Shown: positions 13,554 to 45,372 of the stretch, one piece after another | Numbering within the stretch: position 1 is the stretch's first letter | Layout of the letters: every line of letters begins with the position of its first letter | Assembly (NCBI GenBank): GCA_964016885.1 | Contig: OZ024740.1 | Coordinates: 115,692,001 to 115,756,000, forward strand | Direction: 5' to 3' | From: Eledone cirrhosa | Taxonomy: Eukaryota | Length of the DNA: 64,000 nt | The notes under the pieces: generated by a model | Seen by the model: the letters and a program-made list of their open reading frames with translations, nothing else | The model's database searches: none | What the model was told of the DNA's origin: nothing | Translations under genes and position numbers: made by a program

Positions 13554-13818
13554 ATAATATAAAACGAAAAATCAGTGATGCATCTGAACTCAATCTATTG
13601 TGTGTTACAATTGTTTCTCCGGCGGACAGCTCGAGACGCGATCATCCACACAATGATCGCGTCTCGAGCAGTCCGCCGGCGAAACAATTGTAACACAATA
13701 AATTGAGTTCAGATGCATCACTGATTTTTCGTTTTATATTATATCATACTCTGCTCTGTAAGAGCATAGAGTGCTCAACCGGCATACCGCCTATGGAAGC
13801 ATCTTAGCTACCATCAGA
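13554..13818. mobile_element. fold-back pLTR fragment (~92 bp arms) with a 3' half hammerhead and a ~75 nt one-sided extension
   Basis: 13554-13645 is the reverse complement of 13652-13742; GAAA-CAATTG-TA at 13681-13692; CUGANGA half lost at the fold. Confidence 0.75.
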
Positions 13819-13974
13819 CACACACACACACACACACACACACACACACACACACACACACACACACACACACACACACACACACACACACACACACACA
13901 CCCCACACACACACACACACACATATATATATATATATATATATATATATATATATATATATATATATATATAT

Positions 13975-14942
13975 ATAACCATATATATTCTGAAATTATA
14001 TTGCCCAGGGTAGTTGGATAAGTATATTTCATTTTAATCAAAGGGTTCCCGGGGGCACAAACCCCCACTGAAAATGTTTTCCCTTCGATTTATATGAAAT
14101 TTAAACCATAGGTAAATGATAATATATGGTGCCTATTCACAAAATTTCAGCAAATTTCAATAATATTAAGACACCCTATTGGGGGTTAAACCTCCTATAG
14201 TGAAAATTTTGGCCAATAAATGGAACAAGATGTGTTGTAACAAGATTGCATGAAAACTTGATTGAAGCAACCATTATATTCGAGGCTTACAAAGGTCAAG
14301 CTCTTCTCATTCCGAGGATTCCACTTATACCAAGTGATAGCGAATTGCTTTTTACATTTAAGAGGCTGCAGTTCCCAGTGAGGCCATGCTTTGCCATGAG
14401 CGTCAATAAGACTCAAGGTCAAACTTTCAAAACTATTGGTATAGATCTCACAAACCCATGTTTCAGTCATGGCATGTTTTATGTGGCTGTTTCAAGGACT
14501 GGAAGTTCAAAAAATCTTTACATTTTAGCCAATCAAAGAAAGACAAGAAATGTTGTTTACCCTGAAGTTTTTCATTAGGACAAAGTATGAAATATATGTA
14601 TTTATTATTATAAAAAATAAATAATTAAACTTTGAATTTCTAATTTGAAAATAATGTTTTACACAAAAATTAAGTTTTGAATTGATATTTTGAAAAAAAA
14701 ATGATTTACAAAAACAAAATAAGAATAAGATTTAATAATGTAATTTTGATTTGATATAATACAAAAAATAATGTTAATACAAAAAATAATGTTTTCCAAT
14801 TTTTCATGCATTGCATTTTACATTGTGTAATATTGAAATGCAGTGTTTTTCTCCATAAATTATATCACTGATTTAAAATCAATCATCGTTTTCTTACAAA
14901 AGAAATGTGTGAAACGCAGCAAGGCGCAGGTAATTCGGCTAG
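13975..14942 (+). mobile_element. Helitron remnant (3' end)
   Basis: PIF1-helicase C-terminus, then a degenerate GC hairpin and terminal CTAG-T at 14939-14943; 5' limit uncertain. Confidence 0.8.
14246..14578 (+). pseudogene. Helitron RepHel PIF1-like helicase C-terminal fragment
   Basis: IPRIPLIP...FKRLQFPVRPCFAMSVNKTQGQT...CFSHGMFYVAVSR...TRNVVYPEVF. Confidence 0.9.
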
Positions 14943-15068
14943 TATATATAATATATAGGGGATGGATTATTTAGGTACAATACCAGTTTCTTACTAAATG
15001 CGAAAAAGCTCGATATATTAACCCCTTAGGAAAGAACACAGAGCATTTTGTTTTTAATTATATATATA

Positions 15069-15305
15069 CAGTGGCGGTGGAACTGGGGGGGGGGTCACCC
15101 TCCCTCCAATAATTATATTTTCTCCCCAAACTCTCAAAACACACATCTATTTGGATATGCGCTACAATTTATGTGCATGTTATGTTTATCGTATATCGAA
15201 GTTTTCTGACCATTTTAGAGTGCAAAGAGTTAAACTAATCACTGCATCTAAATTGTCCAAATTTTCACACACACACACAATTCAGAGATGATTCCTCCGC
15301 CCCTG
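15069..15305. mobile_element. MITE with short TIRs (cagtggcgg...ccgcccctg)
   Basis: Imperfect terminal inverted repeats; a similar right end at about 48525-48538. Confidence 0.5.
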
Positions 15306-16568
15306 TATAATTGATATTTCTTTATGATAAACTTAAACTGAAATGATGACAGAAATATGACAGAAAACGTGACAATATGTGTGTATATTGCCATGTCTGT
15401 GTTTTTTTGTTTGGGGGGGGGGGGGGTCGTCCTGTAACCAAGCAGTTCGACAAAAAGAGATCGATGAAAAAATACCGAGTTTCCACCAGTTCAGTATGAA
15501 AGTATAGGGAATAGTCATCACAAGAATTCCACATAAATCAAGGACTCAGCTCAGTATGCAGCGAAGAAATCTCGAAAAGTTTTACTGGTGTATGCATGTG
15601 TTTATGTGTGTGTAACTTATGTATGTACAGAGCTTGACACATATGGGAAAGCGTTCGTCTTTGGGCTGCGAGTTGTGAGAAACTCACGTATATAAAGCCG
15701 AAATAAACTTCCGTACTGAGTCGGGAAGCTGAGACTAGTTTGAGATAGAAGCTGCGGCTATTTGTGTGCAGTTGCATGTGAGAAATGCAGAAATTTGCAG
15801 CTTGCTGTGTTTGAGGTAGGTAAGGGCCGATAGTTTTTTCCAAAACTTCAAACTAGTTGAGGAGAGGTATCTCGCTATGTCCCTGTGTGAAATCAAATGT
15901 TATATGTACATGCTTATGTGTCAATGTGACAGAAATGGTTGATGCGATTGTGTGTGATTACAAACAATAAATAAACTACATGCATAAGTTGAACAACATT
16001 GAAGGTTGAAGAAAAACAAAATATCAAAATGTCTAAGGTCCACTATCCCATTATTTTATTTTATTTGTTTTCTTTCGCCCTTCTGTCTGTGCTATTTGTT
16101 TTATCACACACACATCATACCAGCAGAAAAATTTATTTTTCTGTTGCATGGTCCATAAAAGAGTACTCTCCATAAAATCGTGCGCGAAACCATTTTGCTG
16201 GCTTTAGAGCTGATGAGGGTAAAGATGTGTAGGTGTAAACTTGTCTTGTACTTCACCTTTCTTTCCTTCTTCCAGTCACTTCTATGCGCCAACCCACTTC
16301 TCCGTGTCCCCTTCCTCTTTCAATCTTTTCTATATTTCTATCACCCACCTTGTGGATTATCACTCTGTTGACCACGGCCCGTTAGTCTCTGTCCTCTGAG
16401 GCATTTTTGTCCATCGCTGTCTTTGACAGCATTTAGCTGTTTTAACGGCTGTTCTAGCGATGGGTTTTCTTATTTTTATATATGTATTCAATTTTATATA
16501 TGTATTCAATTTTATATATGTATTCGATTTTTCATTATATATATATATATATATATATATATATATAT

Positions 16569-43132: not shown

Positions 43133-43351
43133 CAGGTATGTCAAATATGCGGTCCGCGGGCCGCATACGGCCCTTTACAAGCACACCTACGGCCCACACA
43201 AAGGTTTTTACAGCGCGAGCATGTTTTATCTTCGTAATATAAAATTTAAAAAATGTGTCGTAATGTGTGTAATTAGTTGTCGTATGTGGCCCTCAGACAA
43301 CACATATGTGACCCATGTGACCTTCGGGGGACACTCAGTTTGACATACCTG
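43133..43351. mobile_element. hAT-family MITE
   Basis: 13 bp TIR CAGGTATGTCAAA/TTTGACATACCTG and 8 bp TSD gtatacag. Confidence 0.9.
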
Positions 43352-44159
43352 GTATACAGCAAAGTAGTTCTGAGGAGCAAATATCATTTTAGTAATGGTA
43401 GAAAAGATAGAGTGATGAAACAACGAACCTGTTCGATCAAAGGATAAGCTATGTTTGTGAGTGAGTTTTAGTCATTACACCATATTACTTTCTTTGGATG
43501 TGGTCTATGTTGTTTGTGTGCGTGGCAACAGTGCCGGCCTAGACTTGGGAGCAGTATACCATAATATGTCTCCTTTAAACATTGAAAAGAGTCAGCCGGG
43601 TAAAGTTCTATATTTCACCGGTCCTATATTAACTCTCCCCGTCGGACGGGAAGATCTTCCACACACTTTGAGGTAGGGTGAGATGTCTTCTCTTGTGAAA
43701 ATGGGTATAGCTTTCATTATGTAAAATCTCACCATTTTGCCACATTTCTCCCTGTTCTGGGGCACTTTTTTTCATGGTATTCCCCGTTTAGGTTTTTAGA
43801 GCTTGGCAGATCTGTATGGTGGCTGCTCGTTTCCTTTTTGTCTTTTGTTTTGTTTTGTTTTTTGTTTCTTATGGCACTAGTATGCAGCGATGGATCTCCT
43901 TTATATTCTTCTTGTTATACAACTAGAATACACAGTTATTTGGCAAGTGTTTTCAAATTAAAGAGTGAAAATGTTTTGCAACAGTAATTTTTACACTAAG
44001 TTTGCATCGCGAGTTATACCACATAATATTTCTCTTCCTAGTGTTTTTTTTTTGTTGTTTTTTTTTGGTGGTGATTGTGGCAGTGAGGGAGTTGTAAAAT
44101 GAAATTGATAAATACTTAATTCCTTCTTAATATATATACTCATTTAAATTAATTTTATT

Positions 44160-44650
44160 TAGTCTATTTCGTACCTATTGGCACAAGGGAGAACATCAAG
44201 GGATCTCGGATTAACATTAATTGCTGCCATTTTAGGAAAAGTCTCGAACGACAGCCGTTTACGTTTCAGTTCCTTATCTGTGTGTTGACGTCACATTTCT
44301 TTTCGTTTATCTCATTTTCTATTTCCCTGTATCACCCTATAAAGTTCTGTTTTCAATATCGAGGTGAAGGTCATGCGACAAACACGCCCATGTCATTTCC
44401 ATTAGTCTGCTTGTATTAAGTCATGTACAGTCATCATTCCTATTCTGCGATATATGTTCTTGTTTGTGATTATGTTTGGCCAAAATATTTTCAGAATTTG
44501 CCGTAAACCTTTGGTTTCAAATGTGTCCCTATTGGGTAAGTGACGTTTACGATAGCCTTGGGTCAAGTCAAGACTTGTGAATGAAAATGAATAGATGGAA
44601 ACTTTGTAGAAATTTGTCGGCGAGATTATACCTATAATTCGAGGTCCTAC
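44160..44650 (-). mobile_element. RTE-like LINE 3' fragment
   Basis: LRQILKIFWPNIITNKNIYRR motif; end cccttgtgccaataggtacgaaatagacta. Confidence 0.65.
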
Positions 44651-44965
44651 CATCTACTAATATATAATACCCTTCTGTATTTGTCCGTCACAAGAGATGA
44701 CTGATGAAGGAAGGGGTGGTGACGTCGATTAAGGCAGGAAGGGGTGGCAGTGTACAATATTCACTACATCTGTGTGTATATATGTGTAGTGAACTGGCTA
44801 CACACATTGGCTGTTATGATTGCTTGTGTGTGTGTGTGTGTAAATTATATTTATATATAATATTTGTGTGAGTGTATATGTGTTTGTGTGTGTTTATTTA
44901 AAAAGATACATAGACAATAGAATTACAAACACACACGAATCTATATATATATATATATATATATA

Positions 44966-45372
44966 TAAAATAAAGTAATTAAGTCAAATATTTAAGATTT
45001 GGCTTCGTTTATTAAAGATGTACTGCTATATATATTTCGGTGACAGCTATCATTGGCTGTGACCTCTTCAGGCAGTTCGAATTGGTGTGGTAGAGACAGG
45101 TACACATGTTGTTAAAGTGTTTTACTCAGTCACTTCTCCGATATGTCCAGCTCCTGGTTGGGTTGTTATTTCTCTGAGGAACTGGAATCAATGATGGCTG
45201 TCACCGAAATATATATAGCAGTACATCTTTCATAAACGAAGCCAAATCTTAAATATTTGACTTAATTACTTTATTTTACATTACTCCGGAGTAACCAAAC
45301 CAGCCTGCGTACTTCGTCGAGTGCTCCAATCTGCATACTGAGGTGTCGGTAAACAACCAACATATACTCAAA
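44966..45372. mobile_element. (TA)n-flanked fold-back HHR element
   Basis: 44966-45055 inverted at 45189-45278, then a ~95 nt extension containing tactcc...gtcgagtgct. Confidence 0.85.
45022..45076 (-). ncRNA. canonical type I hammerhead ribozyme
   Basis: Minus strand: actgc-CUGAAGA-GGUcACAGC caaugaua GCUGUcACC-GAAA-UAUAUA-UA/gcagt. Confidence 0.9.

Follow-up and report, generated by a model that had tools for sequence, protein, structure and literature searches.

A conserved bulged hairpin beside the copy ends of Hydra-clade PLEs, a likely RNA site for fixing the start of copying

The closest described counterpart of the structure reported here is the AC-rich stem-loop of the Poseidon element PAc (Frangieh et al. 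2024, PMC11167929), which also lies downstream of the HHR and is tied to internal RT initiation. In that study's account, the protein of this Poseidon PLE introduces nicks into each strand of AT-rich DNA, and reverse transcription starts from two internal positions in the RNA that are one tail length apart, internal initiation at the stem-loop having been demonstrated in vitro. Within the EN+ PLEs, whose RTs are sister to TERT, the text on the Hydra clade (Craig et al. 2021, PMC8557442) gives a definition by RWK, DKT, CxCX5C, CxxC and CxH motifs and describes the same features as are seen here, namely an HHR in the pLTR, (TA)n targets, inverted copies and a one-sided tail; the words stem-loop and hairpin are absent from its main text and supplement. 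Work on pLTR hammerheads and non-LTR retrozymes (PMC4209133, PMC7229834, bioRxiv 10.64898/2026.07.22.740005) likewise shares with our elements a type I HHR in PLE ends and non-autonomous derivatives, and its text describes the ribozyme with no downstream hairpin or breakpoint rule.

Our analysis of a 64,000-nucleotide window from Eledone cirrhosa (contig OZ024740.1, positions 115,692,001 to 115,756,000) compared 13 pairs of short and long copies, an element with two short copies being counted once. At nine of the 13 breakpoints, or ten counting one variant, the long copy carried a bulged fold beginning 1–12 nt beyond the point where the short copy stops, as counted from the last base in common to the stem, and composed of RCTC, an upper stem of 3–7 bp, a 2-nt 3' bulge T[ACT] and GAGY, and three breakpoints lacked the motif. 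A sequence-only reading of this DNA had named nine sites where the short copy stops about 3–13 nt before a stem that opens with ACTC/GCTC and closes with GAGT/GAGC, and the long copy continues for about 75–170 nt, in families with no other likeness. Eight of these are real, lie within 1 nt of where they had been placed and are able to form the full bulged fold (opening/closing arms at 13748/13769, 17021/17042, 22938/22958, 26248/26264, 27047/27104, 45283/45319, 19515/19442(-) and 12713/12653(-)). The six plus-strand extensions (about 70–165 nt) agreed with that reading, as did a self-BLAST of the window with the lack of other likeness between families; the stem itself exists but is two-part with a bulge, and ACTC/GAGT is a local variant of the commoner form GCTC/GAGCACT. 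The ninth site, at 31787..31791 (-) in the Neptune-type PLE D, is not an instance, as both copies end in TA, the supposed long copy also enters (TA)n (31796–31837) before its ACTC, and a bulged closing arm is absent. Four additional sites, at 26768(-), 12569(-), 5295(-) and 47604(-), had not been named before.

The fold-back element at 13547–13820, whose short arm stops at (TA)n 13501–13546, carries its hairpin at 13748..13775 (+), with ACTC, a 6-bp upper stem, a TA bulge, GAGT and the flank GCT. Fold analysis placed further bulged hairpins at 17021..17048 (+) in the GCTC/GAGC form (element 16570–17097, HHR core with one mismatch at 16806(-)), at 26248..26270 (+) (fold-back 25868–26332, intact HHR cores at 26141(+) and 25967(-)) and at 45283..45325 (+) (fold-back 44968–45373, intact HHR cores at 45174(+) and 45071(-)). 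In the fold-back 22852–23009 the hairpin lies at 22938..22961 (+), where the first ACTC matches the consensus register and the RNAfold MFE favours the second ACTC, the register at 22946 chosen in the earlier reading; the MFE lacked the lower stem at 22938, 26248 and 26768. The unit at 26353–27201 showed two hairpins upon fold analysis, hairpin 1 at 27047..27107 (+), where the short copy 26353–26488(-) stops at (TA)n 9 nt before the stem, and hairpin 2 at 26752..26768 (-), where the plus-strand arm stops at (TA)n 27202, 5 nt before the stem; one contig of run X9 reads both parts of this unit consecutively. The variant, GTTC/GAAC with a TA bulge, was found by fold analysis at 5260..5295 (-) in the element 4818–5658, which has an intact HHR core at 4965(-) and both of whose arms stop at one and the same site, and it also occurs upstream of a Hydra ORF in one outside locus (L014). 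A bulged hairpin also lies at 47535..47604 (-) in the long arm of the degenerate fold-back 47622–47711, where the break position is uncertain. A recognisable HHR core was present in six of 14 window short copies, plus one doubtful, and two HHR-type elements with breaks at 12975(-) and 33400(-) were without the motif.

Substitutions listed from run X1 in the hairpin at 26248..26270 fell in the loop (26255, 26258) and the 5' flank, with none in the stems; the majority allele at 26255 was considered as stem-improving and rejected, as this position falls in the loop. X1 contig depth drops across the break at 26241, a value that is summed contig depth and carries no weight. The two raw-read runs yielded 7 and 4 reads.

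Clade assignment within the window centred on PLE B, which has a frameshift-broken ORF at 10239..12525 (-) with RWK, DKT and a GIY-YIG domain with CxxC..E..N..CxH. RWKA and ADKT are present in this ORF (DKT replacing DKG) and in our alignment A1; the Pfam GIY-YIG match had an E-value of 2.4e-4, slightly below the curated cut-off, and the C-terminus reads CRLC..E..N..CNH in 10239–10715, with CCHH absent. The CxCX5C linker is present in the A1 consensus and degenerate in PLE B. Hairpin 1 of this element, identified by fold analysis, occupies 12650..12713 (-) in the 5' pLTR extension, and the short copy from 9584 stops at (TA)n 9558–9583, 1 nt before its stem. An imperfect hairpin 2 at 12551..12569 (-), 44 nt before the ATG at 12525, matches the position of hairpin 2 in outside Hydra loci. 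The Hydra-type PLE C bears a bulged hairpin with a long apical insert at 19439..19515 (-) in its 3' pLTR extension, and its inverted short copy 22588–22819 stops at (TA)n. Outside Hydra loci possess both an HHR in the pLTR and a (TA)n target, whereas PLE B and PLE C retain (TA)n and only HHR remnants. Hydra and Neptune elements were sorted by tblastn against one query of each type. The fold-backs classed as ORF-less have no ORF in these copies, and as most window elements are of this kind, their Hydra link rests on the hairpin motif itself.

A short motif that was first defined post hoc could reflect chance or shared ancestry alone, with no function. In 0.25% of cases a randomly chosen window position has the full fold starting no more than 14 nt away, a figure obtained with a pattern defined after the sites had been seen. 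A fairer null drew 13 AT-rich points at random and took the best 4-mer containing G/C, and at least six sites were reached in 162 of 20,000 draws and eight sites in one. ACTC occurred at six window sites by script registration and at eight after correction by eye of sites A and D, which hold small indels and where the breaks were registered by eye (the gap at site A being -4 or +3, depending on the alignment).

Related Hydra-clade PLE loci from other (marine) samples contain this fold too, mainly as GCTC...GAGCACT. In these outside loci the hairpin lies about 70–105 nt after the hammerhead and is often repeated about 60 nt on, just before the ATG, hairpin 2 keeping a fairly constant distance of about 35–45 nt before the ORF start. 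The consensus reads 5'-AU-rich patch, 2–6 nt, (G/A/U)CUC, upper stem, a loop of any length, upper stem, a U+H bulge, GAG(C/U/A) and (A/G)CU. It is important to note that many contigs of G001 were selected for containing the motif and that relatives share ancestry; a set of 94 outside loci was selected by protein match only. Within protein-selected loci, 74 of 156 motif matches lay no more than 260 nt after an HHR core, in comparison to 0–8 in 20 Markov controls. Under a strict pattern, 51 Hydra ORFs with a 5' flank showed at least two matches in 27 cases, one in 13 and none in 11, variants being recognisable in seven of these last 11 on inspection or with the model. In G005, a genome of 5.6 Mb, the only model match sits 28 nt before a Hydra ORF match and had not been part of the training set. 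Three of six Hydra consensus sequences in File S7 of PMC8557442 contain the hairpin, one of them with two before the ATG, and a scan of viral contigs found no relatives. Among 19 G001 contigs, most of them selected for Neptune-like matches, the model matched in two (L200 and L226), the L200 hairpin and those of the Hydra-type copies forming one family. L218 has an ACAC/GTGT variant 5 nt after the break and about 1 kb from a Neptune-like fragment, and L205, of a Neptune family, has ACTC 9 nt after the break with the closing arm absent. With only such scattered Neptune cases the motif is best described as a Hydra-clade feature, and the initial suggestion that it is common to unrelated HHR elements is conjectural beyond that clade.

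Copy ends in the outside loci were assessed from the junctions and from the hairpins. The hairpin-first test contains redundant rows and sister-subfamily divergences, and the junction-first test is therefore the one to count; here visual inspection removed 12 of 36 junction rows, and the hairpin lay 2–6 nt beyond the copy end in 20 of the 24 usable junctions, against a background of 4%. Junctions in loci selected by protein only placed it 2–6 nt on in all seven cases. The four junctions without the motif represent three distinct long copies, near Neptune-like matches or of no assigned clade. An AT-rich patch had been predicted before the hairpin, and TAT/ATA was indeed found at -12 to -3 in 65 of 96 hairpins, in comparison to 88 of 288 control windows further upstream, with at least 3 nt common to the junction and the TA run in 16 of 20 junctions. 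This enrichment, together with the fairly fixed distance of hairpin 2 from the ORF start, would also suit hairpins with a function in packaging or in controlling translation from the ATG that follows hairpin 2 by about 35–45 nt, the breakpoints adjoining only via local TA-rich patches. We consider that explanation quite improbable, as TAT/ATA is present in the upstream controls too, yet 22 of 24 TA-type junction rows (hairpin-first test, partly redundant) fall at -2 to -6, and hairpin 1 marks ends as well despite its distance from the ATG.

In six G001 fold-backs one arm stops before hairpin 1 and the other reads through it into a TA-type repeat, and in two of these families the longer end maps directly before hairpin 2. 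Where both hairpins are visible, the fold-back arms end before hairpin 1 and hairpin 2 respectively; two genomic end positions downstream of the HHR therefore bound the one-sided tail, which equals the spacer between the hairpins.

The tight clustering of copy ends at 2–6 nt would also fit a hairpin that marks the RNA 3' end, produced by nuclease cleavage or by transcription ending immediately upstream, with the RT priming at the true end as in ordinary TPRT. A tRNA D-arm consists of GCUC-loop-GAGC followed by a purine and C, and the stem letters and 3' flank of our hairpin are similar; the pattern matched GCTCAGTTGGTAGAGCACT-type sequences in bacterial genomes, which we take to be tRNA D-arms. 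The hairpin differs from a D-arm in its extra upper stem and bulge, in its first three pairs, which vary freely, and in having no remaining tRNA. No tRNA genes were present in 19 loci, and B-box-like words followed only 11 of 111 hairpins; with no cloverleaf in these 19 loci either, a tRNA or tRNA-derived SINE origin was rejected. A longer RNA 3' end also left the main Poseidon product unchanged in the experiments described in PMC11167929, and we regard an RNA 3' end at the hairpin as rather unlikely.

Covariation was calculated for 96 non-redundant hairpins with no selection on the upper stem. Upper-stem pairs 1–3 were formed in 78, 62 and 60 of the 96, in comparison to shuffled means of 53, 36 and 39, and the covariation was present only in the 2-nt-bulge register, the first pair being C-G in 39 hairpins and U-A in 32. 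A hand-picked alignment of 59 hairpins had 95.8% of cells paired and 82 two-sided changes versus 25 ± 7.5 when shuffled, a value reached by none of 500 shuffles. Compensatory changes affect the upper stem plus three of the four lower pairs. A covariation check, of the kind proposed with the sequence-only reading, gave a register-specific signal in both sets, and the conserved structure downstream of the HHR is borne out by this covariation and the fixed breakpoint offset. Chance or shared ancestry alone is largely refuted by the register-specific covariation, the enrichment over controls and the blind match in G005, and its probability is close to negligible.

These changes also bear on which nucleic acid folds. 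Inside stems G-U outnumbered A-C by 4 to 1 and at stem ends by 15 to 6, counts that lean weakly toward sense RNA. The first pair showed A-C mismatches and no G-U, as did window sites 27047 and 26768, and such mismatches would read G-T on the opposite strand; GCTC/GAGC is moreover self-complementary and therefore either strand can fold. Both points favour a hairpin that acts as DNA, recognised by the endonuclease in a tandem or circular intermediate that is cut at the adjoining TA patch, setting the copy end. The D. virilis tail, required for EN recognition as cited in PMC11167929, and the suggestion in PMC8557442 that tails arise by EN-mediated resolution point the same way. The in vitro RT starts on RNA reported in PMC11167929, however, coincide with the Poseidon tail ends, and we judge a role as DNA to be unlikely.

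We therefore favour, with a probability of roughly two in three, a conserved bulged hairpin of Hydra-clade PLEs, often present twice between hammerhead and ORF start, as the RNA site bound by the RT-endonuclease to fix the start of copying; from the sequence evidence, the hairpin is a likely RT docking site. The GIY-YIG domain would nick (TA)n, and the freed 3' end would pair over about 3–5 nt with a UAU(A) patch held beside the bound hairpin. The RT would copy only sequence 5' of this patch, and the hairpin would therefore be left out of the new copy. Were hairpin 1 to serve one end of the target and hairpin 2 the opposite end, head-to-head insertions with a one-sided tail as long as the hairpin spacing would result. 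The ORF-less window fold-backs may represent 5'-truncated or non-autonomous copies that owe their mobility to Hydra proteins, for example those of PLE B and PLE C. The start site of the Poseidon element is reported as non-homologous to the cut DNA (PMC11167929), which counts against docking of this kind; TA microhomology is seen in the Hydra-type junctions here.

PAc and the Hydra-type elements are alike in having two start or end sites, a tail equal to their spacing and an AT-rich target. PAc is, however, a single element of another clade in which initiation is reported within the stem-loop and without target homology, and the text of PMC11167929 describes no conserved motif, covariation or duplicated hairpin, a distinction drawn from description and not from sequence. 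The Hydra-type elements here end 2–6 nt before each of two covarying hairpins, with TA microhomology. Their spacing is about 55–70 nt in marine loci and 70–165 nt in the window, in comparison to the tails of 30–40 bp ascribed to EN resolution in the text of PMC8557442. Rfam gave only sub-threshold matches in the window and, in six outside loci, a single match (E 1.9) located away from the hairpin. No description of the motif was found in the literature searched, which took in few subscription papers and Repbase notes and did not extend to figures, bioRxiv supplements or the GenBank file of PAc. Relative to the PAc initiation stem-loop, what is new is thus a conserved, duplicated hairpin motif, absent from Rfam and from the literature searched.

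Telomerase RNA template-adjacent stems and hepadnavirus epsilon are RT-binding RNA elements, and the hairpin resembles them in concept, as a small structured RNA that would fix the RT start, rather than in a compared sequence or structure; the proposed primer here differs in being nicked genomic DNA, and the hairpin would not be copied. It is possible rather than probable that Hydra PLEs hold two RT-docking hairpins used simultaneously by one protein pair priming from both nicked (TA)n strands, in which case one rule would give both the inverted pLTR and the one-sided tail, and the hairpin would be the minimal portable template-positioning element of telomerase's closest mobile relatives.

On the origin of PLE inverted ends and one-sided tails, the in vitro work points to an initiation stem-loop in one element only; with a covarying motif of 20–30 nt from which both copy ends can be predicted to a few bases throughout a clade, this origin becomes open to direct test. 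Annotators gain a rule for the boundaries of Hydra elements and their non-autonomous partners. The hairpin also provides, in telomerase's sister group, a candidate for a minimal RNA bound by an RT, together with a short signal in cis that could perhaps steer RNA-templated insertion.

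Self-BLAST analysis of the window, an AT-rich, animal-type DNA that is dense in (TA)n runs and Penelope-like elements (PLEs), identified 13 elements that pair a short copy ending at (TA)n with a longer copy. At nine of these breaks a fold could be formed in the long copy 1–12 nt past the last shared base (13748+, 12713-, 17021+, 19515-, 22938+, 26248+, 27047+, 26768- and 45283+), consisting of RCTC, an upper stem of 2–7 bp, a loop of 2–61 nt, a 2-nt 3' bulge beginning with T, and GAGY. A tenth break had the compensated form GTTC/GAAC (5295, minus strand) and three were without the fold (12975-, 33400- and 31791-). 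The sequence-only reading had placed an ACTC...GAGT hairpin beside nine breaks of hammerhead ribozyme (HHR) elements, eight of which were upheld with a stem formable just past the break; the ninth was 31791-, where TA ends both copies. RNAfold left the lower stem out of the minimum free energy structure at three window sites, and just six of the 14 short copies retained a recognisable HHR core. Although the fold began within 14 nt of a random window position in only 0.25% of cases, the pattern was defined after the sites were known and was therefore tested on DNA outside the window.

The break of element A (near 13748+) was blurred because two different elements, facing each other across a single (TA)n run at 13480–13553, share the same terminal 6 nt. 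Four orphan pattern matches had no partner copy in the window (18366–18386(+), 33554–33599(-), 15008–15044(-) and 45466–45486(-)), and those followed by TA runs within ~50–70 nt (two of four) may be tail-only stubs. The orphan at 45486(-) is a perfect GCTC...TAGAGCACT, with an HHR-like core at 45489 on the opposite strand.

Other window features included an ORF at 37764–39689 bearing RT, RNase H and integrase-like motifs, which we take to be an LTR retrotransposon, and ORFs that are presumably small heat-shock-like (49582–50106) and tandem C2H2 zinc-finger (61595–62824, with 84-nt repeats). An abundant dispersed repeat family of ~150–190 nt was found at 573–2690, 17779–17955, 19931–20281, 41820–42230, 55628–59443 and elsewhere, with a palindromic copy at 19931–20250. 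PLEs located by tblastn, all on the minus strand, were two of Neptune type (6983–9331 and 27903–30199) and two broken ones of Hydra type (20760–22581 and PLE B, 10248–12498). PLE B possesses the RWK and DKT motifs together with a CxxC/CxH endonuclease pattern, which the account of EN+ PLEs by Craig et al. (PMC8557442) lists for the Hydra clade.

An alignment of 36 proteins related to that of PLE B served to select 77 metagenome loci and 17 genome-bin loci by protein alone. In these loci 74 of 156 loose motif matches lay within 260 nt past an HHR core, in comparison to 0–8 in 20 Markov controls, and they concentrated at 72–106 nt and 134–178 nt. The commonest form was GCTC...T(T/C/A)GAGCACT, of which the ACTC/GAGT of the window is a compensated variant; TCTC/GAGA, GTTC/GAAC, ACAC/GTGT and GCAC/GTGC were also found. 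Before Hydra ORFs with sufficient 5' flank the strict pattern matched at least twice in 27 of 51, once in 13 and not at all in 11, with variants seen by eye or model in seven of these 11. The standard motif was not observed at the Neptune-linked ends examined, except for one variant. Families at L029, L033, L058 and contigs C121 and C8 of bin G001 carry a YTGATGA-like word (half a hammerhead core) ~8–12 nt past hairpin 1, which suggests that twin hairpins, the successive copies between HHR and ATG, may have arisen through duplication of an HHR-plus-hairpin unit. A tandem array at G002:C74:42838-43798 held six hairpin-like matches ~135 nt apart. G001 (a GTDB bin of ~12 Mb) and the other bins behind L078–L094 are filed as bacterial, yet contain eukaryote-type, PLE-rich DNA; a Neptune-type query gave 119 matches in G001.

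Covariation was assessed in 96 non-redundant GCTC..GAGC pairs past the HHR core from 168 loci, the interior being unconstrained. With a 2-nt bulge, upper pairs 1–3 formed in 78, 62 and 60 of the 96, in comparison to shuffled means of 53, 36 and 39; when the bulge was set to 0, 1, 3 or 4 nt, the null was not exceeded at any upper-stem position in the same set. The first upper pair was C-G in 39 and U-A in 32. In a hand-picked alignment of 59 hairpins 95.8% of cells were paired (19–54% in slid registers) and two-sided changes numbered 82 against 25 ± 7.5 in shuffles (0/500), for a selected set whose shuffles ignore kinship. Of 375 candidates in the 5.6-Mb genome G005, 150 were scored with the model from this alignment, and one match reached E 0.1 or better; this match was absent from the training set and a Hydra ORF match lies 28 nt further on. 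The hairpin is a real, covarying cis element. A role at the DNA level has a low but real probability, as wobble counts favour sense RNA only weakly and A-C in place of G-U was seen at the first pair.

The same 168 loci (1.05 Mb, G001 contigs included) contained 81 TA-type junctions past an HHR core, 36 with a partner at ≥92% identity, from which 12 were removed by eye, the partner being itself a repeat-ended copy or flanking DNA. The hairpin lay 2–6 nt past the last shared base at 20 of the 24 retained junctions (17 distinct long copies; background 4%) and was absent after four (3 distinct long copies); in loci chosen by protein only it was present at this distance in 7/7. At least three bases were common with the TA run at 16 of the 20 hairpin-bearing junctions, and TAT/ATA had its maximum 6–9 nt upstream of the stem. 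Cutting of the RNA at the hairpin site might instead set these copy ends, which we consider unlikely.

Hairpin 1 and hairpin 2 alike mark copy ends. The arms of six fold-backs in G001 differ in this respect: one ends before hairpin 1, the other passes through it into a TA-type repeat. In two of these families a fuller copy has hairpin 2 directly past the second end. Staggered ends were seen directly in window unit 26353–27201, whose arms stop before 27047 and before 26768; one contig of sequencing run X9 joins both parts consecutively (119 letters fit either side). Element 4818–5658 is an exception in the window, as one site ends both arms. An HHR family at L197:3002 and L198:10550-10606 has two TA breakpoints ~55 nt apart and no recognisable hairpin of the kind described.

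The hairpin pattern also matched G001:C42:1912-1930, G004:C325:77480-77498 and others, which presumably resemble bacterial tRNA D-arms. This likeness might stem from mimicry, from origin or from convergence; no cloverleaf was found to support it. Rfam gave no match to the hairpin in the window and outside loci, and no description of the motif was found in the literature searched. In the PMC8557442 supplement (584,217 characters, in which line breaks may hide further matches), three 9-mers taken from the closing arm matched at six places, four in Hydra pLTR (PLE terminal repeat) regions and two within non-Hydra records lacking hairpin context. Three of the six Hydra consensus sequences in that supplement contain the hairpin, which receives no comment there, and one starts 2 nt upstream of it. 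The hairpin is apparently a cis element so far undescribed.

Working on the Poseidon element PAc, Frangieh et al. (PMC11167929) showed that a PLE protein cuts AT-rich DNA on both strands and extends each of them, and that it initiates at two internal RNA sites in an AC-rich stem-loop, the distance between which equals the tail. The simplest interpretation, to which we give a probability of roughly two in three, is that in the Hydra clade this step, internal RT initiation, is signalled by the bulged hairpin, with binding, strand and order of events as we infer them. Bound to the hairpin, the protein would keep the UAU patch in place so that a nicked (TA)n end could pair with it. Since copying would lead away from the hairpin, the new copy would lack it. 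With two hairpins there would be two start sites, and hence staggered arms and a one-sided tail. The initiation signal itself is of a kind already known, of which the bulged hairpin of the Hydra clade would be a variant form.
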